NCBI GenBank assembly: GCA_026393835.1
Contig: JAPKZK010000020.1
Span: forward strand, 13,034 to 77,033
Length of the DNA: 64,000 nt
Reading direction: 5' to 3'
Origin: Candidatus Aminicenantes bacterium
GTDB taxonomy: Bacteria; Acidobacteriota; Aminicenantia; UBA2199
How positions within the stretch are numbered: the stretch's first letter is position 1; every line of letters begins with the position of its first letter. The notes beneath the pieces were generated by a model. It worked only from the letters and a program-made list of their open reading frames with translations, was not told the origin of the DNA and made no database searches. Positions 5,871-36,547 of this stretch are shown in pieces. The translations under genes and the position numbers were made by a program.

Positions 5871-6284
5871 TTATTTTAAAAAATTGGAAATACTTTCACT
5901 TAATTCTTTTTTTTGAGATGCCTTTATTTCACATTGCCATATGATCATATATTTCCAGCAAAGGAGTTCCAGCCGCTTATAATTCGCTCTGTCTCTTTCG
6001 GCATTACCGGTAAGTTTTTTTTTCCAGAAATCGGCATTTGCAGTAGGTAAAGCGGAACGTTTACATCCCTCATGCCCATGCCAAAAACAACCGTGCACAA
6101 ATATTACTTTTTTATACTTTGTAAAAACCAAATCCGGGTTTCCCGGCAAATCTTTTTTATGTAAGCGGTATCGATATCCCATTGAGTGAACCAATTTCCG
6201 GATAAAGACTTCCTGTTTTGAACCTGTCGGTTTAATTTTTCTCATTATTTCCGAGCGTTTTTCGGGTGGGAAAATATCAGTCAC
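5871..6284 (-). CDS. vsr: Very-short-patch repair endonuclease Vsr
   Basis: 137 aa. RSEIMRKIK, PDLVF...KVIFVHGCFWHGH and ...FW..K...N..RD match Vsr. It overlaps the upstream C5-MTase by 8 nt, the classical dcm-vsr arrangement. Confidence 0.9.
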   Translation of the reverse strand: MTDIFPPEKRSEIMRKIKPTGSKQEVFIRKLVHSMGYRYRLHKKDLPGNPDLVFTKYKKVIFVHGCFWHGHEGCKRSALPTANADFWKKKLTGNAERDRANYKRLELLCWKYMIIWQCEIKASQKKELSESISNFLK

Positions 6285-11915: not shown

Positions 11916-12041
11916 GACCTCTCTTGTAAAATATTATTAGAAAGCATTGCACCACCTTTTGCAATTAAAATAAAGTTAGCCGCGAAGAACGCGAAGGACC
12001 GCGAAGAGAGAAAAATTTTGCCTGTCTCCTTCTCCTTTTCC

Positions 12042-12067: not shown

Positions 12068-12158
12068 GATTTTGGAAATAAAAAAGCGATAATTGTTAAT
12101 TGTTCTGACCTCTTTACCATTTTCCCCAGGAACATGGCATTTTCCAAAAGCGCCGCGA

Positions 12159-12305
12159 CCATTCCCGCATCTGCCGGCGCCATTCCCGCGGTTGCCGTGG
12201 CCATTCCCGCACCTGCCGGGACCATTCCCGCACCTGCCGGGACCATTCCCGCATCTGCCGGGGCCATGTTTACGATTGCCGGCGCCATGTGTCAGGGAGT
12301 AGGCG
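12159..12305. repeat. Tandem array of a 21-bp unit (ccattcccgcacctgccggga), 5 good and 2 degenerate copies
   Basis: Units start at 12159, 12180, 12201, 12222 and 12243, followed by two decayed units. ORFs on both strands across it (GNGPGRC / PFPHLPG heptads) have no start or RBS context and are probably artefacts of the 21-nt period. Confidence 0.85.
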
Positions 12306-12309
12306 GACA

Positions 12310-12365
12310 TTGGTCATTGGTCATTAACAATTAACCATTAACAATTGGCAATTAACAATTATCCC
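12310..12365. repeat. Heptanucleotide microsatellite (cattggt/cattaac/aattaac/aattggc, about 8 units)
   Basis: The sequence reads cattggtcattggtcattaacaattaaccattaacaattggcaattaacaatt when read directly. Confidence 0.8.
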
Positions 12366-12428
12366 TTTTCCTTGTCCATAATAGTAATAAATTTGCCTCT
12401 CCCCTTCTCCTTCTTATTATCAGCGCAA

Positions 12429-12554
12429 TAGTTTTCCCGCGCACAAATATAGTTTCCCCACGCACAGAAATAGTTCCGCCGCGCACAGATGTAGTTTTCC
12501 CGTGCAACGATAATGACCTCCCGCACAACAAAATAGTCATTAAATGCAGCGCCC
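12429..12554. repeat. Second 21-bp-phased degenerate tandem array (tagttttcccgcgcacaaata-like, about 6 units)
   Basis: The tag anchor recurs at 12429, 12450, 12471, 12492 and 12534, which is exact 21-nt phasing with one decayed unit at 12513. It shares a ttcccgc core with the 12159 array. Confidence 0.75.
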
Positions 12555-21459: not shown

Positions 21460-24159
21460 TCATGAATGGGTGCGAAGAACACGAAAACCGATCACATCGT
21501 ACAGGTAATCGGGGCCGCCGTTGCTGCGGGCAGCGCAACGCATATTATGTGCGCCATCATACCACGAACCGCCGCGAAGCGCATACCAATTATTCGCTGC
21601 ATCATAATAATTGTCCATCCATTCCCAGGCATTGCCGGCCATGTCCATTAAACCTTCGGGTGTGGCGCCTTCGGGGCAGTGCCCCACGGGAGTGGAGGCC
21701 CCGACATTTTTATTGTAATTGGCCAGGTTGGGGTTGGGTTCACCTTTGTATGCCGGCCAGGGATATTTACGCAGTGATCCGCCGGGTTCCCTACCGGCAG
21801 CCGCCCATTCCCATTCTTTTTCCGTGGGCAGCCTGTAAATAGATGCAAGCTGATGGATATCCGGATTTTCAATATCTCCCCTCATGGCAATATCCAGGCA
21901 GGAAAGCCAGAAACAATAAGCACGGGCCGCATACCAGCTTACCGCAACCACCGGTTGATCGTCATCATAAAATTTTTTATCATCATCCAGCCTGGAAGGG
22001 AGTTTAACCTGCCATTCCGTGAAGTTTTCGCCCAGGAATGCGGTATAACCTTTTATGGGCGTCGCAAATTTCAGGAGCCGCTGCGCAAATATTTCCAGTG
22101 GAAGAATTTCTAATAGTTCTTTTTCACGGCCTGCAAGGAAAGAGATGAAGCGCCGGTACCGTTTATTGGTAACCGGGTATTTGCATAAATAGAATCCCGG
22201 GATATTTTCTATTCTACCTGTAACTGAAAATTTATAGACGCCGCCGGGGATATTGATATATTCGACATTGTCTTCAAATGGATTACGAAAAGAGGATTGC
22301 ACAAGGCTCCCTTCGGGTTGTATTTGTTTCTTCAACTCTTGGAACCGGGGAGACGCTTCGGTGATGATATCATCGGCGTACGCCCGATTAACTTTATTCC
22401 AATTTTCATTATTCGCTGTTTCGATGGTCTGTATGGCTTCTGGGGTCCCGATGGTTTTTAAACAGTCCAATACATAACGTCTCTGGTTATTGTTTATTCG
22501 ATCGCTGTTTAAATATTCCTTCAGCGCATCAATTTTTTTCTGGGGGGCTTCCTTGATTAAAAGCTGCAATAAGTTTTGCTGATGGTCGTTCAGTTCCTTA
22601 CTAATATCGGCCTGGAAAAATAAATACATGAATCGATTGAAAATGTTATCATCAGACTCGTTGAAGAAAAAGCGTAGCGTTTCCGTCCACCAATCTTCGC
22701 CAAAATCGTGGATTAAAGCCTCCAAAAAGCCGGTTTCATAAGCTAACTTTCGCAATTCCTGTGCTGCCAGGAATTCCCGGAAGGATTTATGGCGAAAAGC
22801 ATAATAGTCTTTGCTGTGATCGACAATCAAGCCCACGCGGTCCCGTAAATACACACAAAATTCATCAGCCCACGGTGGACTGTTCAATTTATCTAGATAT
22901 TGCTGCATAAATTTATGCATCTCTTCTTTTAAAACCTCATTACTGCGTACTCCCATCTGCATCCAAAGGGCGACGGGAGTCAAAATACTACGTGATTCAT
23001 CAGCGGAAAGCAACGGACCAATCTCCTTTTGCCGGTCGCGATATTCCAGCAAATAGTTCAAGGACGCATCATATAAGTCCGACCGGGTTTCAGGTAAATA
23101 CCGGCGCTCCTTCCAGAGTATGGCCATAATATGCAGCAGCATGGGAACAGCGGCCAATTCTCGCACCGCTTTATTTTCTTCTTTTTTCAAAAAAGAAATA
23201 ATAATCTGCGATTGCCAGTCTGCCTTTTTAATTTGCTGTTCTTTCCATTTTTCCACCGACATATCCGGCGGGGGTAATTGGGTTGAAAAAGCCGCCCGGA
23301 ACCATTTTTTTAAAAATTCGTCCTGCTGTTGTGAAGAAAAATCCATAATATCTACCCGAAAATGGGGCATTTCCAATTCAATGCCGTCTTGCTTGCGGTA
23401 GCCGGCAGCGCGTGAAGTAACCACAAACTGCGTATTCCCCAATATTGAACAAAGATTTCCAAACCAGCGGCACACCTTTCGACGCCTTTCTTTACTGCCG
23501 ATTTCATCCAGCCCGTCCAGCAGCACCAGGGTGTTGTCATCGTCAAGCAACCCGGAAAAAAAATTCTTAGAGAAATTCAATAAACGTCTATCAAACCATT
23601 TTTCCAGGTTCACCGGTATAGATACCGGTTCATCATTTTCATCAAATTCCAATTCTCGCAGGGGAAAGTAAAGAGGAATTATCTTTCTTTCAAATCCCAA
23701 CCGTTTCCATTCTTCAGCGGTTTTATCAAGGCAGGCCAGTGCGTAATACTTCAATAGGGTGGTTTTCCCGGATCCCGGATCCCCGATAATCAGCAGCGGC
23801 TTGTGCTGATTAAAAGCCCTATTCAAGGCATCTTCGGGCGATAAAGGGGGTTCTTCTTCATAAATTCCCATGCCATCACGATTCTTAGAGCCATCGAATC
23901 GATCTTCACTACGCCGGGACACTGAGATACGCAACGAAACAAATGCGTCCTGAAGCCCGACAATCGAACTTTCTATATCCGGTGAACCCAATAAATGAAT
24001 CGTTCCCAGTTCCCTCTTCAGGGCTGTTGAGTACTTTTCTTGTTCTTGTTTTATTCCTTTTTTTGTTTCTTTATTGAGGCGAACAAATATGTAAATAATA
24101 TATCCCAAAATGGCAATACAAAATAAAGCTAATAATGTAAACGCAACTTCTACCGACAT
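21460..24159 (-). CDS. STAND NTPase: N-terminal TM helix, NACHT domain and C-terminal formylglycine-generating-enzyme (FGE/SUMF1)-like domain
   Basis: 899 aa with a TM helix (aa ~5-27), Walker A IIGDPGSGKTTLLKY, Walker B LVLLDGLDE, and a C-terminus YRLPTEKEWEWAAAG...GNAWEWMDNYY...LRGGSW...RCAARS...IGFRVLR, the FGE-sulfatase signature. Confidence 0.8.
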   Translation of the reverse strand: MSVEVAFTLLALFCIAILGYIIYIFVRLNKETKKGIKQEQEKYSTALKRELGTIHLLGSPDIESSIVGLQDAFVSLRISVSRRSEDRFDGSKNRDGMGIYEEEPPLSPEDALNRAFNQHKPLLIIGDPGSGKTTLLKYYALACLDKTAEEWKRLGFERKIIPLYFPLRELEFDENDEPVSIPVNLEKWFDRRLLNFSKNFFSGLLDDDNTLVLLDGLDEIGSKERRRKVCRWFGNLCSILGNTQFVVTSRAAGYRKQDGIELEMPHFRVDIMDFSSQQQDEFLKKWFRAAFSTQLPPPDMSVEKWKEQQIKKADWQSQIIISFLKKEENKAVRELAAVPMLLHIMAILWKERRYLPETRSDLYDASLNYLLEYRDRQKEIGPLLSADESRSILTPVALWMQMGVRSNEVLKEEMHKFMQQYLDKLNSPPWADEFCVYLRDRVGLIVDHSKDYYAFRHKSFREFLAAQELRKLAYETGFLEALIHDFGEDWWTETLRFFFNESDDNIFNRFMYLFFQADISKELNDHQQNLLQLLIKEAPQKKIDALKEYLNSDRINNNQRRYVLDCLKTIGTPEAIQTIETANNENWNKVNRAYADDIITEASPRFQELKKQIQPEGSLVQSSFRNPFEDNVEYINIPGGVYKFSVTGRIENIPGFYLCKYPVTNKRYRRFISFLAGREKELLEILPLEIFAQRLLKFATPIKGYTAFLGENFTEWQVKLPSRLDDDKKFYDDDQPVVAVSWYAARAYCFWLSCLDIAMRGDIENPDIHQLASIYRLPTEKEWEWAAAGREPGGSLRKYPWPAYKGEPNPNLANYNKNVGASTPVGHCPEGATPEGLMDMAGNAWEWMDNYYDAANNWYALRGGSWYDGAHNMRCAARSNGGPDYLYDVIGFRVLRTHS

Positions 24160-24227
24160 TGTAATACCTGCGGCGTTCCTTTAAAAGGTTTTGAACCATG
24201 AGAAAATCTTATTTTTTTCATCATTCT

Positions 24228-24256
24228 ATTGTATAGAAAATTGCTTCCTATTTCAA
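24228..24256 (-). promoter_or_regulatory. Putative sigma70 promoter for the NACHT gene
   Basis: The minus strand reads TTGAAA-17 nt-TACAAT, about 70 nt upstream of the start at 24159. Confidence 0.4.
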
Positions 24257-24273
24257 TAGGGAAAAAGGAATTG

Positions 24274-25050
24274 TTAATCCTTCGATACATATTCACCAAA
24301 CCCCGCAGCTCTAAAATAAGCTCTACGAAAACCGGCAAATCGCTTATTTGCCCTGGTATCTTCTTTAATTTTATTAAGGAATTCATTTTTTAACTCTTGA
24401 TTATTGGTATATTTAGCAAGAATTATTGTTCCAACAATGGTTTGAAAACGATCAATTAGTCCCGTCCGCTCTTCCTTAACCTCCTCCTTATTGATTGCCG
24501 TTAATTCAAAGGCAGTTTTATGACCGCGGCCTTCCTTATCCAATCCCACGGCTATAACCAAGTTTTCATTAACTTCCTGCCAGACAAACCCGATAAATTT
24601 TTCCGGGTCCTCATCAACCGGATTTATTAATACCGGTTTTTCCAGTTTCAAGTCATCTTCACCTGTGAAAGCCCTTTTACTTCCTCCCAGTAGGGGAAAT
24701 TGAGTCTTTTTGATTTCCTGGTTGCAGCTTTTGCAGGCCAGGAAAAGGTTTTCCCATTCATAGGCCAGCCACCAATAACCGGGATGTCCATTCTCATCCG
24801 ATATTCCTGCTTTGGGCCGGAAATGCTCCACATCGAATTCCCGTTTATCCCGTTTACGTTCACAATAGCAGCATTTACCATCATGCCATTGCCAGAGATA
24901 TTCCTTGATATCGTGCCAGTGTGGTTCAAAATCCGCGGATTTTAAGTTAATTCCGGCTTTAATCATATTTTCGATTTGCTTTTTGGTATCCTCGACTTTT
25001 TTTGATTTCAATGATTCGGGTATAGGGGGCCGTGTTCTTAGTCTAATCAT
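24274..25050 (-). CDS. HNH endonuclease of the PtuB / TIGR02646-like type (Septu-like partner)
   Basis: 258 aa. GKCCYCERKR..FDVEHFRPKA...WENLFLACKSCNQ..K gives CxxC...H...N...CxxC. There is an 8-nt overlap with the upstream ATPase gene. Confidence 0.75.
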   Translation of the reverse strand: MIRLRTRPPIPESLKSKKVEDTKKQIENMIKAGINLKSADFEPHWHDIKEYLWQWHDGKCCYCERKRDKREFDVEHFRPKAGISDENGHPGYWWLAYEWENLFLACKSCNQEIKKTQFPLLGGSKRAFTGEDDLKLEKPVLINPVDEDPEKFIGFVWQEVNENLVIAVGLDKEGRGHKTAFELTAINKEEVKEERTGLIDRFQTIVGTIILAKYTNNQELKNEFLNKIKEDTRANKRFAGFRRAYFRAAGFGEYVSKD

Positions 25051-27376
25051 GTTCGTTTTTTGGGGTTGTTAATTGCTCGAGATTTTTCAACATCTTCTCC
25101 AGCCGCTGCTGCATCAGCCGGGTTTCAGCGTCTTCGGCCGCCCCGGGCAAGGTTTTTTCCAGTAACTCGCCTAATCCTTTAAATTCCTCTTCTTCTTGCT
25201 GCGTACGGGATCCTTTTAGATAGAGGGTCCCGAGTCTTTCCAGCTTTTCTGCTGTTTCCGGGTTGCGTGTGGTGGGCAGTTCAAACGCCTCCGATGTCAG
25301 GATTTGATCGGCCCTCAACCCACGCAGAGAAAAAATTGGGACTAATTCTACCGGTTCATTGGGTATCTTATGAAATCGTAATACCTGGTACTCATCATCA
25401 TCCAGGTCTGTAATACCGGCAACGCACATGGGAGAATGCGTTGCGGCAATAAATTGGATGCCGGGAAATTGTTCTTTTAACAATTGGATAATATATCGCT
25501 GCCACCGGGGATGTAAATGCTGCTCGATTTCATCCACCAGTACTATCCCGGATATCAGATTGGGGTCAAGCTGCCGGTCGTCCAGCATATTCCAGGCAAT
25601 AAGATCCAGCGCCCAGGCCGCCGTATTCTTATAACCATCTCCTTGATCTTGCAACCTGGACCGCCCCCCGGCATTAACCAATTCGATACCTCTGCCGGTT
25701 AACTCGATATGTTCCTTCCCGGTGAAAAGGAACAGTCTTTCGATTAACTTGTAGACAAGATAAAGTATTTCTTGTTCGGCCTCTCTTTCCCGGTCTTTAG
25801 GGGCCCTGCTTCGCGCTTCCAATGCCAGCAGGCTTAAACTGAGTTCCGGGCCCTGCAGGGGTTGGTCATAACGAAAAAGAGTTTCAACTGCTTCTATTAC
25901 CCTGTACTGTTCCGGTTGTTTCCTTAGTTCACTTAAAATCCGCCCGGCACCGTACCCGCAAACAAACAAAAGATGCCGGGGAAAATTCCCCGGTAATATG
26001 AGCTCGACTTCTCCGCTGTCGGAAATATAAAAATATTCCTTTCTTACCTGTTCGGAGCCATTCATCCGGTCGAAGCGGGTAACGATACGATATTGTCCTA
26101 TCCCGGGGGCATTCAACCGGATATCGATGGTTCCCGTCCGTTGGCCGTCTCGAATAAATTTTCCATGGAAATCGGCCAACAATGCCGAGGCATTAGGCTC
26201 ATCGCATATCCCCAGGATCAGGCAGCGGAGAAATGACGTTTTACCCGTGCTGTTATCTCCCAGTAAAAGGGTAAACAACGGCGTATTATTTTTTTCCGAA
26301 ATGAAACCGGCGGATAATGATTCGAACCCCTGGATATTTTCTAAACGGACCCCGGTTAGATAAAAGCTCTTTTGCTCCGATGGCGGCAAAGCGATTTTAC
26401 GCTTTGATTTGAAGGTAAAATAGAATCTTCCATCTTCGCTGTCCGGGTTGACTTCGGTGTTTTTTCTCCATTGTTCATGCTCAGGCAGGTATTTATAGAA
26501 TTGTACCGTTGTCTTACTTTTGATCAAATCGATCTCTACCAGGTTAAAGGAGTTTGGGGTTCGATGTGATGGCTCATCCATCAAATTACCGATCACAACG
26601 GCTTTACCTTTTGTCCCGGCACTGAAGGCAGCGATGGGTGTATGGGTGTGCCCGGTCATGATCATATCTGTTTTTCGCACCAGCAATTCTTTTGATACCT
26701 CATCAACCGGATGGAAAATGGAAAAAGGATGATGAAAGAAAGCAATAGAAAAATGCGCATTTTCATCTAAGGCAGCCAATGCGTTTTCCACCTGGTATAA
26801 TCCCAACGCCGGTTCTTCTTTGCCATCGATGCTGTAACCGGTGAATAAAGCGCTGTTCAGACCGACCATATTAATTTTGATCGATTGCCCCTGCTTATCA
26901 ATATCCATGGTTTCGACGAAACGGTAGGTGGTATCTGTAAATAGACGGCGCCCCATGGCCTTTTCGGCAAAGGCATTGAAAGCGGTAAATTTGCGTAAAA
27001 GTTTCGGCAAATAAAAGGAGTCGGTCAATAGTTTAGTAATGTCATCCTGGTTTTCAAATGAATACAAACGTTCAATATCTATATCCGAGATTTTTTCCCG
27101 TCGATTAATATCATGATTCCCCGGCACGATAAAAAGACGTTGCGCAGGTAAACCGGTAACGGTTAGAAGTTTCTCGCAAAATGATTCCGCTTCCTTATAT
27201 TCTTCCTCTTTGCCACTGGATGCAATGTCGCCGGAAATAATAATGAAATCAATAAGTTTCTCCCGGGCAACCAGATCTTTGATGGCGTCCAGCATGGAAC
27301 GGGTAACGATGTCCCCGGTTTTTCCCGGGTTGGCGCGCAACTGGAGATCGGATAAGTGAAGATAGCAAAGTTTCAT
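25043..27376 (-). CDS. Fusion of a calcineurin-like metallophosphoesterase (aa ~1-290) and an ABC/SMC-like AAA ATPase (aa ~340-720; PtuA/OLD-ATPase-like)
   Basis: 777 aa. MPE motifs are HLSDLQL, SGDIASSG, VPGNHD, FFHHP and TGHTH. ATPase motifs are LLGDNSTGKTSFLR (Walker A), GDGYKN (signature-like), VLVDEIEQHLHP (Walker B / D-loop) and ATHSP (H-loop). Confidence 0.8.
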   Translation of the reverse strand: MKLCYLHLSDLQLRANPGKTGDIVTRSMLDAIKDLVAREKLIDFIIISGDIASSGKEEEYKEAESFCEKLLTVTGLPAQRLFIVPGNHDINRREKISDIDIERLYSFENQDDITKLLTDSFYLPKLLRKFTAFNAFAEKAMGRRLFTDTTYRFVETMDIDKQGQSIKINMVGLNSALFTGYSIDGKEEPALGLYQVENALAALDENAHFSIAFFHHPFSIFHPVDEVSKELLVRKTDMIMTGHTHTPIAAFSAGTKGKAVVIGNLMDEPSHRTPNSFNLVEIDLIKSKTTVQFYKYLPEHEQWRKNTEVNPDSEDGRFYFTFKSKRKIALPPSEQKSFYLTGVRLENIQGFESLSAGFISEKNNTPLFTLLLGDNSTGKTSFLRCLILGICDEPNASALLADFHGKFIRDGQRTGTIDIRLNAPGIGQYRIVTRFDRMNGSEQVRKEYFYISDSGEVELILPGNFPRHLLFVCGYGAGRILSELRKQPEQYRVIEAVETLFRYDQPLQGPELSLSLLALEARSRAPKDREREAEQEILYLVYKLIERLFLFTGKEHIELTGRGIELVNAGGRSRLQDQGDGYKNTAAWALDLIAWNMLDDRQLDPNLISGIVLVDEIEQHLHPRWQRYIIQLLKEQFPGIQFIAATHSPMCVAGITDLDDDEYQVLRFHKIPNEPVELVPIFSLRGLRADQILTSEAFELPTTRNPETAEKLERLGTLYLKGSRTQQEEEEFKGLGELLEKTLPGAAEDAETRLMQQRLEKMLKNLEQLTTPKNEHD

Positions 27377-29118
27377 TTTTTTCCTTTTCCTGTTTTTTTT
27401 CCTGTTTTTTTTTCTTCTTTTTTAGTTTCGGCGGCTTCCCATTTTTTCAATTCGACTTTTCCCTCGGTGCCGATGTAATAGGTGTCGGTATCGCGGCTGG
27501 TAATTTCAGGCATTCTCAATATCCGCGGCGTGATGCTTAATAATATATCGGTGCGTTCGCTGTTCTTGGTGTTGGAGGAAAATATCTCTTTGAGAATCGG
27601 CAGCCGGTTTAAGAAGGGAATACCGGTGACGCCGCTGCTGCTGGTTCCTTTCATCAGCCCCGCGATGATACCCGTCTCCCCGTCCCTCAAGCGTAATTTT
27701 GTCGTTACTTTACGGCTTCCCAATGTGGGCGGCACATAGTTACTTCCCATATCGATCACGTTGGTTAACTCGAATTGCAGTTCCATGGTGACTTCCCGGT
27801 TGGAATGGACGACAGGGGTAAGAGTTATGGATATACCCACATCGGTCATGGCAAAGGAAGTAATGGGCTGCTGGTTGACGCCGCCGCTGGCAATGGGGAC
27901 AAAAGTGGTCCTGGGGATGGGGCGCTGCTCGCCCAATTGAACGGTTATTTTTTCTTTGTCCAGGCCCCTTATTTTAGGTTGGGCCAATATTTTCGAATCC
28001 GTGATGGATGAGTAAAACTTCCAGACCATTTGCGGCACCGACATGATGATGTCGCTGGAACTGATATTATCGATTTCATTGACATTGATCCCGGAATCGG
28101 TTCCTTCGACCTTTGCGCCCACCTGCCAGGACGAAAGTTCTGCGCCATATTCACTCAATTTTTTGTTGTTGACTTCCAATATTTCGATTTCCACTTCGAT
28201 TTCTGCTTTTCTTTTATCGATAAATTGGGCTAACTTTTCAACCAATAGCAGGTTTTCCAGGGAATCGGTGACAACCAGGGAATTGGTCAGGTCATTTAAG
28301 GTCATTTGTTCGGGTTTGAAAGTTTTCTCGATGATCTTTTTGGCGTCTTCGGCGCCGACATTGGCAAAATAGATATTCTTTATCAATAGCTTTTTGTAAC
28401 GTTTAGCGCTGTCCCCGGTGTTCAGCGCGATGACGATGTTCTTATCATCCAGGATATAATAGCTGCATTTATAAATCCGGCAGATATGTTCCAGGGCTTC
28501 ATGAAATGTCACATCCAGGAGTTTCAGGGTTACCCGTATGTCTTTAAATTCAGAGTCGAAAAGAATGTTCACATCTCCTGTTTTTGCTAAAACCCCGAAT
28601 ATAGCCATCAGGCTTGTAGGGGATTTGAATTCCAGGTCCAGGCGTTCCTGGCTTTTCATTATTGCCGGCAGTCCGGTGTTGATTTCTACCTCTTTTTTTA
28701 ACTCCTCGATGGGTTTAACCGCTAGTTCACCCCGGCCAAGTTCCAGCAAGTTTTTTCTTACTTCGCTGTTGCCGGGGTCGAATTGGAGGGATTTTTTATA
28801 GAGAAAGAGCGCTTTGGTTTTATTGCCGGCCTCTTCTTCAGCTTTGCCCGCTTGAAAATAATAAATAGAAGCCTCTTTCAATACCCGGTCGATCTCGACT
28901 TTTAGGGCGATGCGTTTTGGGTGGGATTTTAGGGCTTTGAAATAGTATGTCAGGGCTTCTTCGTATTGTTTATTTTTTTTAAGAAACTCCGCCCGTTTGA
29001 GATGGTGGCCGGTACACCCGGGGAAAAGAAGGGGGATGATGACCAGGCCGGCAAGAAAAAGTAAAAGCGCCCGCTTCCCATGAAAAAACTTTGTATAGTT
29101 CCTATTGTTCATTCTCAT
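27373..29118 (-). CDS. Orphan secretin-family outer-membrane protein with lipoprotein signal and N-terminal TPR repeats
   Basis: 581 aa with LLFPGC (lipobox), TPR-like helices, a Secretin_N-like module (...VVTDSLENLLLVEKLAQFIDK) and a C-terminal secretin core (GETGIIAGL...GIPFLNRLPILKEIF....TDILLSITPRIL). The ATGA stop/start overlaps the downstream MPE-ATPase gene. Confidence 0.8.
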   Translation of the reverse strand: MRMNNRNYTKFFHGKRALLLFLAGLVIIPLLFPGCTGHHLKRAEFLKKNKQYEEALTYYFKALKSHPKRIALKVEIDRVLKEASIYYFQAGKAEEEAGNKTKALFLYKKSLQFDPGNSEVRKNLLELGRGELAVKPIEELKKEVEINTGLPAIMKSQERLDLEFKSPTSLMAIFGVLAKTGDVNILFDSEFKDIRVTLKLLDVTFHEALEHICRIYKCSYYILDDKNIVIALNTGDSAKRYKKLLIKNIYFANVGAEDAKKIIEKTFKPEQMTLNDLTNSLVVTDSLENLLLVEKLAQFIDKRKAEIEVEIEILEVNNKKLSEYGAELSSWQVGAKVEGTDSGINVNEIDNISSSDIIMSVPQMVWKFYSSITDSKILAQPKIRGLDKEKITVQLGEQRPIPRTTFVPIASGGVNQQPITSFAMTDVGISITLTPVVHSNREVTMELQFELTNVIDMGSNYVPPTLGSRKVTTKLRLRDGETGIIAGLMKGTSSSGVTGIPFLNRLPILKEIFSSNTKNSERTDILLSITPRILRMPEITSRDTDTYYIGTEGKVELKKWEAAETKKEEKKTGKKTGKGKK

Positions 29119-29171
29119 GTGTTATCTTCAAAGAGATAAGAAGTATAACACAAGTTGGAAGTTTTTAAAAG
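29066..29171. repeat. Direct repeat copy 1 (106 bp): the first 17-18 codons of the secretin gene plus 53 nt upstream
   Basis: 101/106 identical to 35741..35846 by manual alignment. Confidence 0.9.
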
Positions 29172-29221
29172 GATTTTACTGGTCCCAGGGCGAAACTCGC
29201 ATCATGATGAACTACCATGAG

Positions 29222-29432
29222 CAAAAAAGGATAAATCGACGACCTAAAAGGACAGGGCGACTTCAAAAAAGGATCAACATACGCTAAAATAAGATCAACA
29301 TTCAATAAAATAAGATCAACACACAAGAGCGATGGACAAAAATTCACTAAAAAAAGATAAAAAAACGCTGAGAATGGGCAAACGGAGATCAAGAAAAGAT
29401 AAACAAGCAGACAGAAAGGGTAATTGCCGATC
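29222..29432. repeat. 21-bp-phased degenerate array, about 10 units, A-tract-leading orientation (aaaaGGAtcaacat...)
   Basis: The anchor RG dinucleotide that follows each A-run recurs at 29230, 29251, 29272, 29293, 29314, 29335, 29356, 29377, 29398 and 29419, which is an exact 21-nt period. Confidence 0.8.
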
Positions 29433-29460
29433 ATTGACAGGCTATATGTTTGTCCCTCTG

Positions 29461-29670
29461 GCGTCGATGATGCCCCTATTGGTGTGATTGATGACCTTAT
29501 TTGCATCGATGATGACCTTATTCCAGTGAACAATGACCTTTTTTTTCGGTTGATTTATCCTCGTCGCCTATCCATTAACCTTTTTTGGTTATAGGTTAAT
29601 CTTTTTCAATGAGATGTTTGTCCTTTTTGCCGCATCGATTACCTTTTGCATTGGTTTGTTCCAGTTCGCC
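29461..29670. repeat. 21-bp-phased degenerate array, about 10 units, in inverted orientation relative to 29222..29432
   Basis: tgatgMcc anchors occur at 29468, 29489, 29510 and 29531, then units decay at a 20-22 nt period. The reverse complement of the unit tgcatcgatgatgaccttatt (aataaggtcatcatcgatgca) matches the forward units (aaaaaggatcaacatacgct). Confidence 0.7.
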
Positions 29671-29842
29671 AACCGGTTTTCGTATCTCCCGGGAGTGCCC
29701 AGGTCGTTGAGAAATTCCACGCTTCATAAAAACGAGAGAATTCATTTATAGCAAAATTCACAAGAATATCTTATCCAAAAACTTCCCCCATTCGTTTCCA
29801 TTTTTTGACGGCATATTCCGGCTGATTAACTTAAAAACAAAA

Positions 29843-30163
29843 TCATGCCCCCGAACTCTGGTAAATGATTTCGCCTGTGCTCAGGATTTCCTCGAAAAAA
29901 CCAGACAGGTCTTTATGATCTCTTTCGATTAAAACCGGCTCGATCCTGCAATCGATATCAGTTCCAAGTTTGAATAATTGTTGCCTGGATTTGAGGTAAT
30001 CTTTATCATTATGATCGACGACAACAGCCACATCGATATCGCTGTGTTCCCTACCGCAATTTTTGGCATATGAGCCGAATAGTATCACCATGCGAACCGG
30101 GAAGTTTTTTTTTACTACTTCCGCATATTTTTTTACTTTGCTTATAACTTCTGCTTTATCCAT
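29843..30163 (-). CDS. Nucleotidyltransferase (MNT-type) antitoxin-like protein
   Basis: 106 aa with the minimal NTase motif ILFGSYAKN...SDIDVAVVV. It overlaps the upstream HEPN gene. Confidence 0.8.
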   Translation of the reverse strand: MDKAEVISKVKKYAEVVKKNFPVRMVILFGSYAKNCGREHSDIDVAVVVDHNDKDYLKSRQQLFKLGTDIDCRIEPVLIERDHKDLSGFFEEILSTGEIIYQSSGA

Positions 30164-30534
30164 AGCTGGAATTCCTTTGTTTGAGTTAAAATGTCACGGC
30201 ATCTTTCCTGGTTTAAAATTTGATTGATACGCTCTTTATAGGAAGGATACCTGGCTTCGACATTTAAAGGCCGGATTAGATTGATGAAATCTTTTTGATC
30301 GTCGGATAGTTCCTCCGATATACCCACTTCCCTTGTCAATGACGTTAAATTGTGTGAATAGGGAGGAGTGGATTTTAGGGTTGAAACATATAATGCTTTA
30401 AGAATTTTTTCAATTACCTGGTGGCACATGAAGCCAACATATAAAAATCGTTTGCTTTCGAGCATGACCTGGGCGGTTTCCAGATCGTAATCGGATAATT
30501 CTACCCAATAGATAATTTTTTCCTCTATTTCCAT
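30142..30534 (-). CDS. HEPN domain protein (toxin-like partner of MNT)
   Basis: 130 aa. A..DL..A..ML, CHQVIEKILKAL, HNL and EARYP are typical of HEPN. Confidence 0.75.
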   Translation of the reverse strand: MEIEEKIIYWVELSDYDLETAQVMLESKRFLYVGFMCHQVIEKILKALYVSTLKSTPPYSHNLTSLTREVGISEELSDDQKDFINLIRPLNVEARYPSYKERINQILNQERCRDILTQTKEFQLWIKQKL

Positions 30535-30616
30535 AGAGGTATTATATTATGAAATTCTTTATTTTTCAATAAGGAGACTCGATTCGGCAGACACTGTCTA
30601 ACTTGCTATTTTAAAA

Positions 30617-31888
30617 TCATTTCTTGCCCAGGATAATATCCGGTACTTGCGGCAGGGCCAACCATTGGGCAAATTTGTTATAGGTCCGGCCAACTTTTTG
30701 CGCCAACTCCACCCCTTTTTTTGTTCCTTCCAATATCTTGCTAAACTTTGAATCTTTATCGCCCATCTTCTCCAATAAACGGCCTAATTTATTTAACGGT
30801 TTGGCCAGTTCCTTTTCCTTCGCTTTCATGGTTAACCCATCCAGGCCGTCTTCGACTTTTGCCAATTCCGCCAATTCCTTTTCCAGGGCCGGGACAAGGG
30901 TGTCGAAACCTTCGTTGTTTTTGCAGGAGACGCGGTAAAAGCTTTTAAGGTTGGGGTATTTATCTTGCAGGAATTTACGATTCAGCTCGAAACCCGGGTT
31001 TGCATCGGTTTTGTTGATGACCACCAGCACCGGGGAGTGGCCGCCGAAGCTTTCGATGTGTTTAAGCCAGTATTCGGTTTTTTCATCCTTGCGGCCGTCC
31101 AGTACCAGGAGGTAAAGGCTGCGTTTGGACAGGAAGAATTGGTGGGTGGCGTGCATGATTTCCTGGCCGCCGAAATCCCAGAGATGGGCTTTGATGGTTT
31201 TGCCGTCTTGTTTAACGGTCCAGGGTTTGATATTAATGCCGTGGGTTTGGGGTTCGCCGATATTAAAGTCCAGGCCCAGGAGGCGATTGACCAGGGAGGT
31301 TTTACCGGCGGCGCCGTCGCCCACCAGCAGGACTTTGACTTCATTTAACGGCAGGGTATCTTCCTTTAAGGAATCGAAATAAGCCTTTATGGCAGTTTTG
31401 CCCTGTTTAATAATCTCCAGCGGCGGTTTTTCCAGGGGGTTGCCGTAGAGATTCAAGCTGTAAAAAGATAAATCATCTTTCCACTCCATTGCCATGCCGG
31501 GCCACAAGGAGGTGAAATCGGGAGAAAGTTCTCGGATGAGATTTTTGTGGACATCCAATGTTGTTAAATGCTTCAATTCCCTCAGCGGCGTGAGGTCGGC
31601 GATTTGATTGTTACTTAAATAAAGCTCTGTCAGGTTCGACAGGGCCATCAGCGGCATGAGGTCCGTGATTTGATTACTACTTAAATACAGATGGGTTAAG
31701 CCGCTTAAACTCCTTAGAAACGAAATATCTTTAATTTCTCTGTTATCCAGGTTCACCCCCTGCACCTGCCCCGTTTTATCCAGGGCATAGCCATTTTCAA
31801 TCCCCCATATTCCCTCAAGCGGACGTGGTTTTAATTTTCCCCCGGTTAGCTTCTCGATCTTTCTTATAATCTCCATATCATGGGCCAT
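30617..31888 (-). CDS. Leucine-rich-repeat plus Roc/Ras-like small GTPase protein (Roco-like, no recognisable COR domain)
   Basis: 423 aa. There are LRRs (LTHLYLSSNQITDL, LTELYLSNNQIADL, LTTLDVHKNLI) and a GTPase module with G1 LVGDGAAGKTSL, G3 WDFGGQE and G4 INKTD. The ~80-aa helical, lysine-rich tail is shorter than any COR domain. Confidence 0.75.
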   Translation of the reverse strand: MAHDMEIIRKIEKLTGGKLKPRPLEGIWGIENGYALDKTGQVQGVNLDNREIKDISFLRSLSGLTHLYLSSNQITDLMPLMALSNLTELYLSNNQIADLTPLRELKHLTTLDVHKNLIRELSPDFTSLWPGMAMEWKDDLSFYSLNLYGNPLEKPPLEIIKQGKTAIKAYFDSLKEDTLPLNEVKVLLVGDGAAGKTSLVNRLLGLDFNIGEPQTHGINIKPWTVKQDGKTIKAHLWDFGGQEIMHATHQFFLSKRSLYLLVLDGRKDEKTEYWLKHIESFGGHSPVLVVINKTDANPGFELNRKFLQDKYPNLKSFYRVSCKNNEGFDTLVPALEKELAELAKVEDGLDGLTMKAKEKELAKPLNKLGRLLEKMGDKDSKFSKILEGTKKGVELAQKVGRTYNKFAQWLALPQVPDIILGKK

Positions 31889-32055
31889 ATGATCTCCTTA
31901 GGAGTTGTAATGAAATAAATTGATCGTTTTAGCATTCGGAATTTTTCCCTCAAATCAAGGGCAAATTTCAAGAACAATTCAGACCATTCGGTACAATAAA
32001 GGTATTCTTGCGATGTTTTTTGCCTTTCATACGGCCTTTTTAAGTATCCTTAACC

Positions 32056-32202
32056 GGTGGGAATGTCATTTTCAGTGGTGGGCAGATCGTTTTCATTGGC
32101 GGGAATGTCATTTTCAGCGGTGGGCAGATTGTTTTCATTGGTGGGAATGTCATTTTCAGTGGTGGGCAGATCGTTTTCATTGGTGGGAATGTCATTTTCA
32201 TG
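32056..32202. repeat. Tandem array of seven 21-bp sub-units alternating between two types (ggtgggaatgtcattttcagt / ggtgggcagatcgttttcatt), i.e. 3.5 copies of a 42-bp unit
   Basis: Near-perfect copies when read directly. Degenerate T-tract units continue upstream to about 32008. The ORF 31920..32303 (WECHFQW/WADRFHW heptads) is probably an artefact of the period. Confidence 0.9.
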
Positions 32203-32437
32203 AGTTAGAATGTTATTTCCCGGGTGAAAAATGGCGTAAACTGAAGATTTTTCCCGTCAAAAGGTTGAAAGGAATGATTCTCATGGAAAACAAGACTATA
32301 TGATTTGTTCCAAAAGGCAGCGAAAATGATCCAGTTATTTCATTACAATGCCTTATCGCTTTAAATGGGCGTTGAAACCGCGTTACAAGTTACAAGTTTC
32401 AATAATCAATCATACCACAGCAGGGAAATAAAAGAAA

Positions 32438-32637
32438 GAATGATGAATGATGAATGATGATAGGTGAGTGGTAGAGTGGTGGAGTAGTAGAATGGTAAAA
32501 AAAAATCTGTGTTAATCTGTGTAATCTGTGGACACATCTTTCTCTCCTTACTCGTGGGCTGTTTTTGTTTTGAATTTTGAGCTTTTGAATTTTGAATTTG
32601 TTTCGAATTTCGAGTTTCGGATTTCGGATTTTTTTCA
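32438..32637. repeat. Composite simple-repeat block
   Basis: Read directly: (gaatgat)x3 plus decayed 7-mers at 32438..32500, aatctgtg x3 at 32504..32531, and ttttgaa/tttcgag/tttcgga 7-mers at 32562..32637. The overlapping ORFs 32399..32648 look spurious. Confidence 0.8.
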
Positions 32638-32769
32638 AATCCTGCCAAAAAATGTCAGGATTTCACGGGTTATTAATTAGTGACATTCTGGATATGCATA
32701 AAAAATGTTCTTGTTTACGGTCGCCATAGTGTTGGATTAACGGTAACACATCGGTGGGGAATTTAATCT

Positions 32770-33753
32770 TTAAGCCTTCTTCTTTAACTCTTTTACGGCT
32801 AGATCAAAATCAGAAATCATATTCTTACTTCGTTCAGCCCTATATTTTTCAAATTCATCTTCAGTTTTTTGGGCAGCGGTTTCGGCGCTCACATTCCCGG
32901 CGTGGGTCAACAGTTCTTTTTCACTCAGCTTCAAAAAAGCATCCAATTTGGCAATCCAATCGTTCATTTTCATCAAGCGGCCGTTGGTTGCCTGCAATTC
33001 GGCAAAATCAAGATACAGCGAAACAATCAGGTTGAGTTGATGCAACTCTTTTTCCGTTAGGTAGTTCTTGGCAATTTTTGCATCCTGCGCGGTAATATAG
33101 TTACCTTTAAAGTTTACCAGCCCCATCAGGGGCTTTGTGCTATCGGCGCGGCTTACAATCATCTGGGCGGCGGTTTGGCCGTGCACGGCATAATGCATTT
33201 TGTTCTGGACCGTCGCAAAGAAGGTTTTTGTCAACGCATCGTCGCTTCGATAATCAATGCTGGTGGCATAAATATCGGTTACTTTCTGGTAAAAATTACG
33301 CTCGCTGCTTCGTATATCACGGATGCGCTGTAATAATTCTTGAAAATAACGCGCCTTTTGTCCACCCTGTTTTAAGCGCTCATCATCTAAGGTAAAACCT
33401 TTTATGATGTATTCCTTAATTCTTTGGGTTGCCCAGCTACGGAACTGGGTGCCCTGGACTGATTTAACGCGGTAGCCAACAGAAATTATGACATCCAGAT
33501 TATAGAAATTGGTTGGCTTGGTAGAAAATTCGGAAATTCCGAATTTTCTCATGGTTGATTCTTCTGTAAGTTCTTGCTCTTCATATACATTTTTTATATG
33601 TTCGTTAATCGTTGACTTTGACTTTCCATATAAATCCGCCATTTGATCTTGTGTCAGCCAGACCGTCTCATCTTCCAAACGAACTTCCAATTTTGTCTGC
33701 CCGTTTTTTCCCTGGTAAATAATAATTTGTGACTCGTTTCCCGGGGTCTTCAT
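32770..33753 (-). CDS. RhuM-family virulence/Fic-associated protein
   Basis: 327 aa. IIIYQGKNGQTKLEVRLEDETVWLTQDQMADLYGKSKSTINEHIKN...NLDVIISVGYRVKS..GTQFR.WAT is highly characteristic of RhuM. Confidence 0.8.
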   Translation of the reverse strand: MKTPGNESQIIIYQGKNGQTKLEVRLEDETVWLTQDQMADLYGKSKSTINEHIKNVYEEQELTEESTMRKFGISEFSTKPTNFYNLDVIISVGYRVKSVQGTQFRSWATQRIKEYIIKGFTLDDERLKQGGQKARYFQELLQRIRDIRSSERNFYQKVTDIYATSIDYRSDDALTKTFFATVQNKMHYAVHGQTAAQMIVSRADSTKPLMGLVNFKGNYITAQDAKIAKNYLTEKELHQLNLIVSLYLDFAELQATNGRLMKMNDWIAKLDAFLKLSEKELLTHAGNVSAETAAQKTEDEFEKYRAERSKNMISDFDLAVKELKKKA

Positions 33754-33951
33754 TCTACTTCCTCCGCTTCAATCAAGCTATTCCTGACTTTTTTCTTCAT
33801 GGGCATAGTATTATATTGCAAATCCTGTTTTTTTGCAACTCTCGAAAAACCTCCCGGAACTTTTGCTAATCAAAAGGGCTTTCCGAACGCCCCGACGCGG
33901 GGGAGGTTTTTAAGAATTGAATTTATTCCTATTTTGCGGTATTATTATCCC

Positions 33952-35670
33952 ATGAAAAAACACAGCCCGAAACGTGAAAAACAATATTTACCGCTAAGTA
34001 AATCCACCTTTTCAAAATATGTCGAAGACAATTGCATATATGTGGATAAAACCCGTTATATTCATCCCCTGGTCCAGGCGGGCGGCGCTTATTTCTTATC
34101 ACGCCCCAGGCGCTTCGGCAAATCATTAACGGTTTCCGTCCTGAAAGAAATCTTCCAGGGCAACCGGGAGCTTTTTAAAGGCTATTGGATTTATAACCGC
34201 ATCAACTGGGGAAAATACCCGGTTATTCACCTGGACTTCCTTAAAATCGATTTCAGGGCCCTGGGCATTGAAAAAGCCATCGACAACGAATTGCAACGAA
34301 TCGCGCAAGATTATGGCATCCCATGCCGCGGGGACAGCATCTCGGAAAAATTCAGCTTTTTAATCGATCAATTATCGCAGGACCGGCGTATCGCTGTCCT
34401 CATCGACGAATACGATAAACCGGTTACCGATTACCTCGAAGATATTAACACCGCTGTCTATAATAGGGATATCCTCAGAAACTTCTATTCGGTTCTTAAA
34501 AGTCGGGAAGGAAATATCAAATTTCTCTTCATGACCGGCATCTCTCGCTTTACCCGCCTGTCGATTTTCAGCGACCTGAACCACCTCATCGATATCTCTT
34601 TCCATAAGGATTACACAAAACTACTGGGCTATACCGGGGAAGAGATCGAAATGTACTTCGACGCTTATATCAATGACTGGCTGCAACTGCATAAGGGAAG
34701 CGGCAGCGGAAACGGAAGCGGAAGCACGAAAGCCGAATTAATGGAAAAATTAAAAAATTATTACAACGGCTATTCCTGGAATGGGAAAGATTTTGTCTAT
34801 AACCCGTATTCCATCAACAACTTTTTCTACAGCATGGAATTCAAAAATTATTGGTTTGCCAGCGGAACCACGACTTCCCTGGTAAAATTGGTCAAGGAAA
34901 AAAATATCGCCGTCGAAAACTGGGAGTACCTGGAGGTTCGCGAGCAATTCTTCGATAAATTCGATATCACCGACATTAATATTAATTTAATGCTTTTCCA
35001 GACCGGGTATTTAACGGTAAAAAAACGCCTCGAGGATACCTATGTCTTATCGTACCCCAACCGGGAAGTAGAGTCTGCTTTATTAAATAATTTAATGGAG
35101 GCATATTCAGGACACAGCCTGGAAGATACGGAAAAATTAATCAAAGATATAAAGGAGGCATTGGAAAAAAAACAATTGGACTCCTTTATCAATCAAATGA
35201 AAGCCTTTATTGCTTCTATACCCTATAATCTTGTGGAGGCCGGGGCGGAGAGATTTTATCACCTGGTTTTTTACATGGCCCTGAAATTATTGATCGGCAA
35301 AGTCTACCCTGAGAAATATACCAACCTCGGCCGGATCGATACCGTCGTAGAGACCGGCGGTTTCATTTATCTTATCGAATTCAAGATGGGCAGTGCCGCT
35401 GAAGCGTTAACGCAAATCCTGGAAAAGAAGTATTATGAACAATATCTTGCCCAACCAAAAAAAATAATCTTATTGGGAATCGGTTTTAGCGTAAAGGATA
35501 GGAATATCTCCGGTTATGAAGCCATTGAAAAAACAGGCTATCCCGGGGCCGAAGAGAAGCCCGGAAAGACCGTCGATTTACTCGAAAAAGCCGTCGCCGC
35601 CATCGAGGCCTTGGAGTGCAGCGCTGAAGTGAAAGAGCGCTTAAAAGCGGTCCTGGAAGAAAAGAAATAA
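33952..35670 (+). CDS. AAA-ATPase-like (PF09820-type) plus PD-(D/E)xK nuclease (PDDEXK_9-type) protein, copy 1
   Basis: The ORF track starts at 33799. I prefer the ATG at 33952 (MKKHSPKREKQYLPLSKSTFSKYVEDNCIYVDKTRYI...FLSRPRRFGKS). The C-terminus has GRIDTVVE...IYLIEFK. Paralogue of 56046..57791. Confidence 0.7.
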   Translation: MKKHSPKREKQYLPLSKSTFSKYVEDNCIYVDKTRYIHPLVQAGGAYFLSRPRRFGKSLTVSVLKEIFQGNRELFKGYWIYNRINWGKYPVIHLDFLKIDFRALGIEKAIDNELQRIAQDYGIPCRGDSISEKFSFLIDQLSQDRRIAVLIDEYDKPVTDYLEDINTAVYNRDILRNFYSVLKSREGNIKFLFMTGISRFTRLSIFSDLNHLIDISFHKDYTKLLGYTGEEIEMYFDAYINDWLQLHKGSGSGNGSGSTKAELMEKLKNYYNGYSWNGKDFVYNPYSINNFFYSMEFKNYWFASGTTTSLVKLVKEKNIAVENWEYLEVREQFFDKFDITDININLMLFQTGYLTVKKRLEDTYVLSYPNREVESALLNNLMEAYSGHSLEDTEKLIKDIKEALEKKQLDSFINQMKAFIASIPYNLVEAGAERFYHLVFYMALKLLIGKVYPEKYTNLGRIDTVVETGGFIYLIEFKMGSAAEALTQILEKKYYEQYLAQPKKIILLGIGFSVKDRNISGYEAIEKTGYPGAEEKPGKTVDLLEKAVAAIEALECSAEVKERLKAVLEEKK

Positions 35671-35740
35671 AATTCACCATCATTTTGTTTCCGGGAGGCC
35701 AGGGCCTTTTTACTAATACCTCAAAAAGGGAATTTTCCTT

Positions 35741-35846
35741 AGCGCCCGCTTCCCATGAAAAAACTTTGTGCAGTTCCTATTGTTCATTCTCATGTGTTAT
35801 CTTCAAAGAGAAAGGAAGTATAACACAAGTTGGAAATTTTTAAAAG
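35741..35846. repeat. Direct repeat copy 2 (106 bp): orphan copy of the secretin promoter and 5' end (remnant reads MRMNNRNCTKFFHGKRA then stops after 26 codons)
   Basis: 101/106 identical to 29066..29171, in the same orientation. Confidence 0.9.
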
Positions 35847-35864
35847 TATGGTTAAGTTTTAGTT

Positions 35865-36383: not shown

Positions 36384-36547
36384 ATTTCCTCCAGGGATAG
36401 TCCGAAGCAAGCTAAATGCCGGGGTAAAAATAAAAATAAGATCAAAAATGTACTATAAAAAGGACAATCATTGGGTCAATGTCCTTTATCCGGGGCATTC
36501 TCTTTTATAGGGTTTTCATTTACCGCGAAATCGATTATAATTAATAA

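Follow-up and report, generated by a model that had tools for sequence, protein, structure and literature searches.

A conserved dyad of 21-bp units in Candidatus Aminicenantes: a candidate multi-site operator

Upstream of a secretin gene of a Candidatus Aminicenantes bacterium, within the 64-kb stretch of DNA that we analysed in full (hereafter the window), we confirm the presence of a conserved cis-element, some 0.5 kb long, that carries no annotation. It takes the form of a dyad, in which two convergent arms, each of ten 21-bp units, meet at a common centre. Judged from its sequence the element is conserved, non-coding and, by prediction, strongly curved, and it was found only in Aminicenantes-like bacteria; we found no description of such an element in the literature searched. 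Our preferred reading, which we hold with about even confidence, is that the window dyad is an orphan multi-site operator (a 'super-operator') belonging to a small family of XRE proteins, the candidate binding being suggested by the adjacency of genes of this family to arrays of the same kind.

Anatomy of the dyad

The element reaches from approximately 29181 to 29693, limits given by its degenerate units and by homology to related arrays, and comprises the following parts.

29181–29222, plus strand: left flank, a pair of degenerate units that keep the 21-nt register, such as CCCAGGGCGAAAC
29223–29432, plus strand: left arm, made up of ten 21-bp units that combine an A-tract with the core (A/G)G(A/G)(T/C)(A/C)A(A/T)C
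29433–29461, no strand: centre, with weak units at 29433–29453 (plus) and 29441–29461 (minus)
29441–29650, minus strand: right arm, ten 21-bp units, the strongest being units 3–5 (AAGGTCATCA)
29651–29693, minus strand: right flank, two further degenerate units; homology to related arrays stops here

The plus-strand units (consensus AAAAAAGGATMAAC; examples are AAAAAAGGATAAAT..., CTAAAAGGACAGGG..., AAAAAAGGATCAAC... and AAAATAAGATCAAC..., the last found twice) keep a 21-nt register that begins at 29223, and are strongest at units 3–5 (AAGATCAACA). The minus-strand units (consensus AAAWAAGGTCATCA; examples are AAATAAGGTCATCA and AAAAAAGGTCATTG) are opposed to them, such that the units of both arms face the centre, and one unbroken 21-nt phase runs across 29223–29650. 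The first-pass annotation of this DNA had described about ten forward and about ten inverted units of 21 bp, and the count proves to be exactly 10 + 10 in a single register; it had also reported a perfect 21-nt phase from 29230 to 29419, and the conserved G of the plus-strand units recurs over precisely this range. The centre of about 30 bp that it placed between the arms is correctly located (29433–29460, nominally 28 bp, with the dyad axis at approximately 29447), but it does not separate the arms as a spacer would, being occupied by two weak units that overlap. The innermost pair of units has a G-to-G distance of 14. The centre is weakly palindromic, all other units of the window array being single asymmetric cores, and a TTGACA found there is not kept in relatives.

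Evidence that this arrangement departs from chance came from autocorrelation measured against 1000 dinucleotide-preserving shuffles. Base identity at lag 21 is 0.509, compared with 0.264 in the shuffles (z = 11.3); lags 42 and 63 give z = 11.6 and z = 6.9, and every other lag gives z of at most 3.5. Inverted symmetry is likewise clear: the 21-column profile of the left arm correlates at 0.66 with that of the right arm once the latter is reverse-complemented, as against 0.33 for the best direct orientation, and none of 5000 column permutations attained 0.66 (p < 2e-4). The periodicity claimed at first reading thus holds against shuffled sequence, and the symmetry against permuted columns.

Related arrays, register and predicted curvature

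The unit consensus was sought in relatives, as the first-pass annotation had suggested, using a two-unit pattern (AAWARGRTCAWCA-N8-AAWARGRTCAWCA) that matched 42 loci in metagenomes and none in viral contigs; a five-unit pattern (WRGRYMAA x 5) proved too loose, matching at least 119 AT-rich viral contigs. The same dyad, convergent and roughly 10 + 10 (9–10 units in one arm, 8–13 in the other), was recovered in nine of the 42 loci, which represent about six independent places, and four further dyads were found upstream of XRE-family genes that were looked up separately. All nine loci derive from Ga03152xx metagenomes, the series that also gave one relative of the secretin. Three loci (L126, L137 and L166) were left out as near-perfect tandem repeats unrelated to the array family, and most of the remaining matches, of two or three units, were counted as chance.

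Loci L135 and L129 match the window unit by unit, together with 42 nt of left flank and 43 nt of right flank. The left flank (29181–29222) is shared with these two and not with L159 or L146; the right flank is shared with L135, L129, L159 and in part L142, and divergence past approximately 29693 is complete. The edges of homology, at about 29181 and 29693, are sharp, and the genes beyond them vary from locus to locus. Over 513 bp, identity to the window copy is 88% for L135 and 82% for L159, with no indel inside the array, and the substitutions that separate the three cluster at unit positions 13–21, sparing the core.

In each unit an A-tract precedes an asymmetric core about 8 bp long (consensus AWA-RG-RT-MAW), and across 180 units from eight arrays (consensus CAAAWARGRTMAWC) the G at position 8 is kept in 90%, the A at position 12 in 85% and the T at position 10 in 73%. 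Units are spaced two helical turns apart, and minus-strand cores are offset from plus-strand cores by 13 or 14 (modulo 21) in each of the ten arrays measured, drawn from five or six lineages; this offset holds even in subtypes built from other units (ATAGGGTCATCA in L139, L168 and L169; ATAGGATGAAT in L173; and L172). With the centre of the site placed between core positions 9 and 10, all cores would lie on one face of the helix and the two arms one turn apart. The suggestion that the dyad is a binding platform is upheld as a description, given a conserved core outside the A-tract and a phase and inter-arm register kept across lineages.

So too is its description as a strongly curved region. 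Under a wedge model that uses the parameters of Bolshoy et al. 1991, the left arm has a predicted end-to-end to contour ratio of 0.39, against a background mean of 0.93, and ranks as the most curved 210 bp of the 64 kb; the right arm, at 0.72, falls under the first percentile of background. Strong curvature is predicted for all eleven arrays modelled, with whole-element ratios of 0.10–0.51.

Periodic arrays of 21 nt are sparse elsewhere: there are three in the window and none in L001–L005. Some consist of unrelated units and stand before other genes, namely arrays A and C of the window, positions 1–147 of L142 and positions 12726–13220 of L160; array C is, by the same wedge model, likewise among the most curved segments of the window. 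Several arrays were recovered from one metagenome, and one array lies inside a strain-specific insertion; individual genomes probably carry several.

The secretin locus and the candidate XRE-family partner gene

The setting of the window dyad is defined by the following features.

27373–29118, minus strand: TPR-secretin gene with Pfam Secretin and TPR domains, oriented away from the left arm
29066–29174, minus strand: direct repeat copy 1, within which lie the functional promoter of the secretin and the opening 53 nt of its reading frame
29843–30163 and 30142–30534, minus strand: MNT nucleotidyltransferase and HEPN gene pair, transcribed towards the right arm
35741–35849, minus strand: direct repeat copy 2, comprising a copy of the promoter and a truncated secretin 5' end, at the far end of a 6.67-kb insertion

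The two copies of the direct repeat are 94% identical. The repeat measures 109 nt rather than the 106 first reported, and the array lies just inside it, as had been noted, beginning 48 bp inward. Copy 1 contains the secretin promoter (TTTAAA-16-TG-n-TATACT, 29169–29142). Between the HEPN–MNT pair and the array no terminator-like site was seen.

Orthologues of the secretin with 90–92% identity occur in L003 (an NCBI MAG), L004 and L005, all of which are without the array; the source names of other homologues are Acidobacteriota or Candidatus Aminicenantes. A secretin query against the genome contigs gave a single match, a 24%-identical relative that is not a usable comparator. In L003–L005 the secretin follows some 72 nt after a gene of 172–173 aa, and alignment with the window shows that the 6.67-kb insertion splits this ancestral gene pair. 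Given that the dyad lies inside a repeat-bounded insertion absent from these relatives, it is foreign to the ancestral secretin locus. Its position upstream of the secretin operon, given at first reading, is correct but secondary: in relatives the secretin comes directly after the preceding gene with no array between them. Homology to L135 stops at approximately 29178–29181, exactly at the end of the 109-bp repeat, and the copy of the secretin promoter therefore sits where L135 has an XRE gene. The cargo of the insertion includes the MNT–HEPN pair, an LRR-Roc GTPase, a RhuM-family gene and an AAA-ATPase-like/PDDEXK_9 gene. Genes of the PDDEXK_9 or AAA-ATPase-like kind are found near six arrays, in variable position and orientation, and we read them as island cargo.

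A candidate partner emerged from an all-against-all comparison of the genes that neighbour the arrays. A 137-aa HTH gene is common to the arrays of L135/L129 and L128/L139, and a remnant of it is present in L142. Members of this XRE family range from 130 to 151 aa; the N-terminal HTH matches Pfam HTH_19, the C-terminal part has a conserved segment (VPMIRHSVMGHYQDCKIRYKDL), and 18 aligned close members show little or no variation in the recognition-helix stretch TYKKNE. The nearest solved or named relatives are repressors of mobile elements – ImmR (ICEBs1), RstR and DicA – all below family thresholds. The AlphaFold2 model of the protein is poor (pLDDT 44), for which reason we treat oligomerisation as conjecture. 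A word-indexed search returned 22 clusters, and a full profile search 244 representatives at E <= 1e-10, many of which cover most of the profile, including its C-terminal part. Proteins with 8–11 tandem XRE domains (poly-HTH proteins), which the profile search also brought up and which seemed an attractive counterpart to ten units in each arm, were rejected: their scores are generic HTH scores summed, and they are without the family C-terminal domain.

The association between gene and array is consistent. A 21-nt periodic array lies directly upstream of seven of the seven close family genes examined, these being the two array neighbours and five that were looked up (L168, L169–171, L172, L173 and L174), and the same holds for both distant members (L176 and L177), which brings the total to 9/9. 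In every case the gene points away from the array. One subtype, seen in L139 and L169, has a near-consensus promoter of the sigma-70 type (TTGACA-17-TATTAT, 11/12, and TTGACA-17-TACTAT, respectively) set in the two outermost units and in register with them; the sites of L139, L169 and L173 overlap the promoter, as, judged by eye, do those of L168 and L172. In L135, the gene of which lies 174 bp from the array, we found no promoter-like site. The innermost units of L139 form a palindrome with a 12-bp stem (TGGATGGGGTCA-TCAA-TGATCCCATCTA), and palindromes of this kind are the classic type of site for an HTH dimer. The unit itself is less constant: L174, the protein of which is 83% identical, has an array in one orientation only and with a different unit (TTTGAAAGGTACAAT), and the units of L176 and L177 differ as well, from which it follows that the conserved property may be 21-bp phasing and curvature rather than a specific core.

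Downstream of the XRE gene, L139 and L168–L171 share the same MauE/DoxX and rhodanese genes. The far side of the array is variable DNA rich in defence-type genes; array copies stand at the borders of such DNA. No member of the XRE family is encoded in the 64-kb window in any frame.

Proposed mode of action, alternatives and known systems

If the dyad is an operator of the XRE family, then the protein would bind one core per unit. Binding would nucleate on the near-consensus inner units, after which the protein would spread or wrap, cooperatively, along DNA that is already bent until it reached the weak outer units; once filled, these would shut the outward-reading edge promoter, the outcome being graded autoregulation. 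An occupied array may also block transcription entering from either side. In the window, a rearrangement associated with the 6.7-kb insertion has placed the left flank of the array next to a copy of the secretin promoter. Any occupancy would then have to come in trans, from a family protein whose gene lies beyond the 64 kb, and the array might influence this promoter or insulate it from island read-through.

A bolder version, which we think rather improbable, is that the element is an undescribed device: a palindromic, pre-curved 2 x 10 'super-operator' of single-core sites held to a strict two-turn register and coated by some twenty copies of the XRE protein, forming a wrapped, two-fold symmetric particle that would act both as a bidirectional insulator and as a control on the level of its own gene. 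The sites of the two arms face each other, so such a particle could stop RNA polymerase from either side. Other 21-nt arrays, including A and C of the window, would be targets of paralogues, and phased arrays would, if this were true, amount to a general mode of promoter control in this lineage.

Bacterial repressors usually act on one to a few operators. Some twenty sites in exact two-turn register, with a fixed arm phase and with partners diverged to 60% identity, would imply a large nucleoprotein complex of defined geometry. No comparable element is annotated in this uncultured phylum. The putative pair, 0.5 kb of DNA and a 137-aa protein, is clonable and would allow study of cooperative spreading or wrapping, of occlusion of a distant promoter and of possible insulation at island borders. 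Such arrays would also account for long 'empty' intergenic regions and for assembly breaks in Aminicenantes MAGs, and the 21-nt periodicity offers a search handle for regulators of this sort and their targets.

The operator reading must be weighed against several others. The dyad could be a purely structural element, its phased and curved A-tracts acting on promoters directly or through some general silencing or nucleoid-associated protein, an XRE protein having no specific part in it. Extreme curvature is predicted for all eleven arrays, including that of L174 with its different units; the same genomes carry 21-nt arrays of unrelated units, array C among them being highly curved; and each of the three window arrays starts 60–210 bp upstream of the start of a minus-strand gene. 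With arrays of unrelated units upstream of other genes, one general factor could read them all. We nevertheless consider this explanation unlikely, because curvature alone requires none of the following: the conservation of a core outside the A-tract over 180 units, the constancy of the inter-arm register to within 1 bp, the palindromic centre in L139, and the presence of an array upstream of nine out of nine genes of one rare protein family. A second alternative is an iteron origin, an incompatibility locus or a centromere, brought in by a plasmid-like circle that integrated via the 109-bp homology. Tandem repeats of 17–22 bp at a spacing of about two turns are what an iteron origin would show, and they are present here (21 bp, z = 11, ten per arm); a conserved core, a variable spacer, two opposed sets and bending are also typical of iteron replicons, a HEPN–MNT pair resembling a toxin–antitoxin adjoins the array, and a long direct repeat bounds the insertion, as a single crossover with a circle would leave. 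But Pfam scans reveal no rep, par, relaxase or integrase gene in the inserted island or in ten related loci, and no ParA, ParM or TubZ partition gene at any locus. There is no DnaA box within 4 kb (TTATNCACA occurs solely at 34041 and 48816), the 28-bp centre does not consist of AT-rich 13-mers, and blastn of the array against 72,556 plasmids and 50,697 phages gave no match. Moreover, the chromosomal neighbourhood (XRE, MauE/DoxX, rhodanese) is conserved even though the XRE proteins are just 64–69% identical. The iteron, origin or centromere reading offered at first pass is thus very improbable, here and in the ten related loci.

It had also been proposed that the dyad is the relic of an element end. 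The array does lie at the junction of a 6.7-kb insertion, where a gene present in relatives has been lost, but it is not a transposon end. More generally, a non-autonomous mobile element (a MITE-like palindrome) or a recombination site at island ends would fit the occurrence of sharp-edged homologous arrays in differing gene contexts (the window, L135, L159, L160 and L142), the long imperfect palindrome that the element forms, and the restriction-modification genes, STAND NTPases, PDDEXK_9 genes and Roc-COR GTPases that the arrays border. Against this, copies in different contexts differ by 12–18% or more, with no near-identical dispersed copies seen; alignment of ten copies and their flanks revealed neither a target-site duplication nor a clean terminal inverted repeat; the arms match each other solely at the level of the unit consensus; and no transposase is linked. 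We judge mobility of this type highly unlikely. Least likely of all is the idea that the dyad specifies a structured RNA – a long imperfect hairpin produced by read-through from HEPN–MNT – or a coding heptad-repeat peptide. The minus strand does fold better than shuffles (z = -3.5), but the plus strand reaches just z = -1.6, the covariation term of the alignment fold is positive (+2.56) with most pairs invariant or broken, and Rfam 15, searched at permissive thresholds across 28500–30500, gives no match at E <= 1. The T-rich strand carries an ORF of 116–177 aa in several arrays, among them those of the window, L135, L159 and L160; we do not count it as coding, because an A-poor strand yields such an ORF by chance, and substitutions by codon position (17/24/10 and 21/23/21) reveal no third-position excess.

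Two other candidates were tried and rejected. CRISPR or TIGR guide arrays do not fit a 21-nt period in which the repeat part is itself degenerate, with no diverse spacers and no Cas or Tas gene; TIGR arrays have a 36-nt period and a Nop-domain Tas protein (PMC12045711). As for a sponge RNA with GGA motifs of the CsrA type, conservation of GGA breaks down in the right arm, which has GGT, and hairpin-loop motifs are absent.

How, then, does the proposed operator compare with known systems? Iteron arrays include the 7 x 22 bp of the R6K gamma origin, P1 oriR/incA, F incB/incC and the 21-bp repeats of RepFIB. Like the dyad they combine two-turn spacing, a conserved core, a variable spacer, opposed sets and bent DNA, and their sites also autoregulate an adjacent gene, as we propose here. 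However, iterons sit beside or around a rep gene and an AT-rich unwinding element, and are carried by a plasmid, whereas the partner of the dyad would be a 137-aa XRE HTH protein, with no rep gene or DnaA box; the arms of the dyad, moreover, abut with no intervening gene, and its loci are chromosomal. Repeat centromeres, such as parC–ParR of plasmid R1, parC of pSK41 and TubR–tubC, offer a second parallel. In the parC type about ten short direct repeats are set in two blocks around a promoter, and a small DNA-binding protein covers them in a cooperative manner, bending or wrapping the DNA and repressing the operon that encodes it, much as proposed for the dyad. Their period, however, is 11–12 or 20 bp and runs in one direction, they are bound by RHH or winged-helix proteins, and next to them there is always a motor gene (ParM, TubZ).

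Curved upstream DNA with phased A-tracts is known to activate promoters or to serve as a target of the H-NS type. The dyad resembles it in having helically phased A-tracts before outward-reading promoters and strong predicted curvature, but such DNA has 3–6 tracts at 10–11 bp, without a non-A core, a dyad or a dedicated regulator. In E. coli oriC two oppositely oriented DnaA oligomers assemble on arrays of low-affinity boxes (PMC12818906). Here too there are two arrays of asymmetric sites of opposite polarity, filled cooperatively from strong anchors, as we suggest the dyad would be; oriC differs in its spacing of about 11 bp, its AAA+ initiator and its status as a unique chromosomal origin.

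The nearest HTH domains are those of XRE/Cro-CI repressors (ImmR of ICEBs1, RstR of CTXphi, DicA, 186 CI), the genes of which also lie beside their sites. The 'stoperators' of cluster A mycobacteriophage repressors are asymmetric and orientation-dependent, and can stop elongating RNA polymerase (PMC9283540). These systems nonetheless have 2–6 operators per locus, or about 30 single sites scattered genome-wide. The contiguous 2 x 10 arrangement of the dyad in a strict 21-bp register is unmatched among them, and the associated XRE family falls below every curated threshold.

Phased arrays and short repeats in the window

Alongside the main dyad (ten plus-strand and ten minus-strand units of 21-nt phase at 29223-29650), two further 21-nt arrays are present in the window:

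12119-12540: array A, the second 21-nt phased array
32035-32221: array C, the third 21-nt array

Array A opens with about eight units of ATTCCCGCAYCTGCCGGNGCC, continues through 126 bp of heptamer repeats and closes with five or six units of TTCCCGCGCACAAATATAGTT, a single register being common to all blocks. Downstream of it, after about 200 bp, comes a truncated hsdM-like reading frame (start near 11912); the site is on the margin of a low-GC restriction/defence island in which Vsr, Dcm and HATPase genes occur. Array C has a super-period of 42 nt (GGTGGGAATGTCATTTTCAGT / GGTGGGCAGATCGTTTTCATT), is situated about 150 bp upstream of the start of the LRR-Roc GTPase gene (31888) and is predicted to rank with the window's most curved segments. 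Arrays A and C have the motifs GGGAATG and GGCAGAT in common.

Tandem runs of heptanucleotides (TTGGTCA, AACAATT, GTTACAA, GAATGAT, AATCTGT, TTTTGAA and TTTCGGA) occur at 12300-12365 and 32380-32640; they are similar to the STRR repeats of filamentous cyanobacteria. Since 7 x 3 = 21, heptanucleotide repeats keep the register of the arrays. There is also a REP-like element, AGCCGCGAAGAACGCGAAGGACCGCGAAG, about 30 nt long and with three CGCGAAG repeats, that occurs dispersed and adjoins array A in the window and both arrays in L160, a related contig. Its copies are:

window, 11975-12007
L160, 9766-9794 and 12652-12680
L173 (a further related contig), about 4466 and about 1908

Arrays and their neighbours in related contigs

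Three related contigs hold further 21-nt arrays, built of unrelated units:

L174, 348-850: about 25 units, all in one orientation and showing an 84-nt super-repeat, with an XRE gene downstream
L142, 1-147: seven units of TGCACGGGACTCTCGTGCACA, upstream of a PDDEXK_9 gene
L160, 12726-13220: about 24 units of TTCCGGGAGGTCGGAAAAATC

Such phased arrays seem to be general in these genomes.

The profile search with the XRE family, small HTH proteins encoded directly downstream of 21-nt arrays, also returned four proteins from outside the window (P0143, P0144, P0149 and P0151). These are 700-1000 aa long and carry 8-11 tandem XRE-type HTH domains, a count reminiscent of the ten units in each arm of the main dyad; all four were rejected, since the C-terminal domain of the family is absent from them and their score is a sum of generic domains only.

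The LRR-Roc protein of the window (423 aa; 30617-31888) resembles a shortened version of the LRR-Roc-COR protein of L135 (964 aa; 5768-8662), which has a weak Shedu-type match at its C terminus and is encoded beside the array of that contig. The two island neighbourhoods show distant kinship.

Insertions around the secretin gene

An ancestral adjacent pair, comprising a gene for a 181-aa lipoprotein-like protein and the secretin gene, has been split by a 6.67-kb insertion:

29175-35740: the insertion, between copies of a 109-bp direct repeat
35741-35849: the remnant beside it, a promoter and truncated secretin 5' end

No recombinase gene is found within 29175-35740, and the insertion may stem from one crossover with a circular molecule or from the action of an integrase since lost. 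A second insertion, evident by comparison with the related contig L003, occupies 21460-27376, between the secretin and a BNR/sortilin gene; three genes of defence-like type lie in it (Metallophos + AAA_21; HNH; NACHT + FGE-sulfatase).

Unit-like cores also occur outside the main array, in the region of divergent promoters that separates the 181-aa gene from a PUA-methyltransferase gene (36425-36490): after AAAATAAGATCAAAAATG comes an inverted pair, AAAGGACA-N12-TGTCCTTT, an occurrence that may be due to chance.
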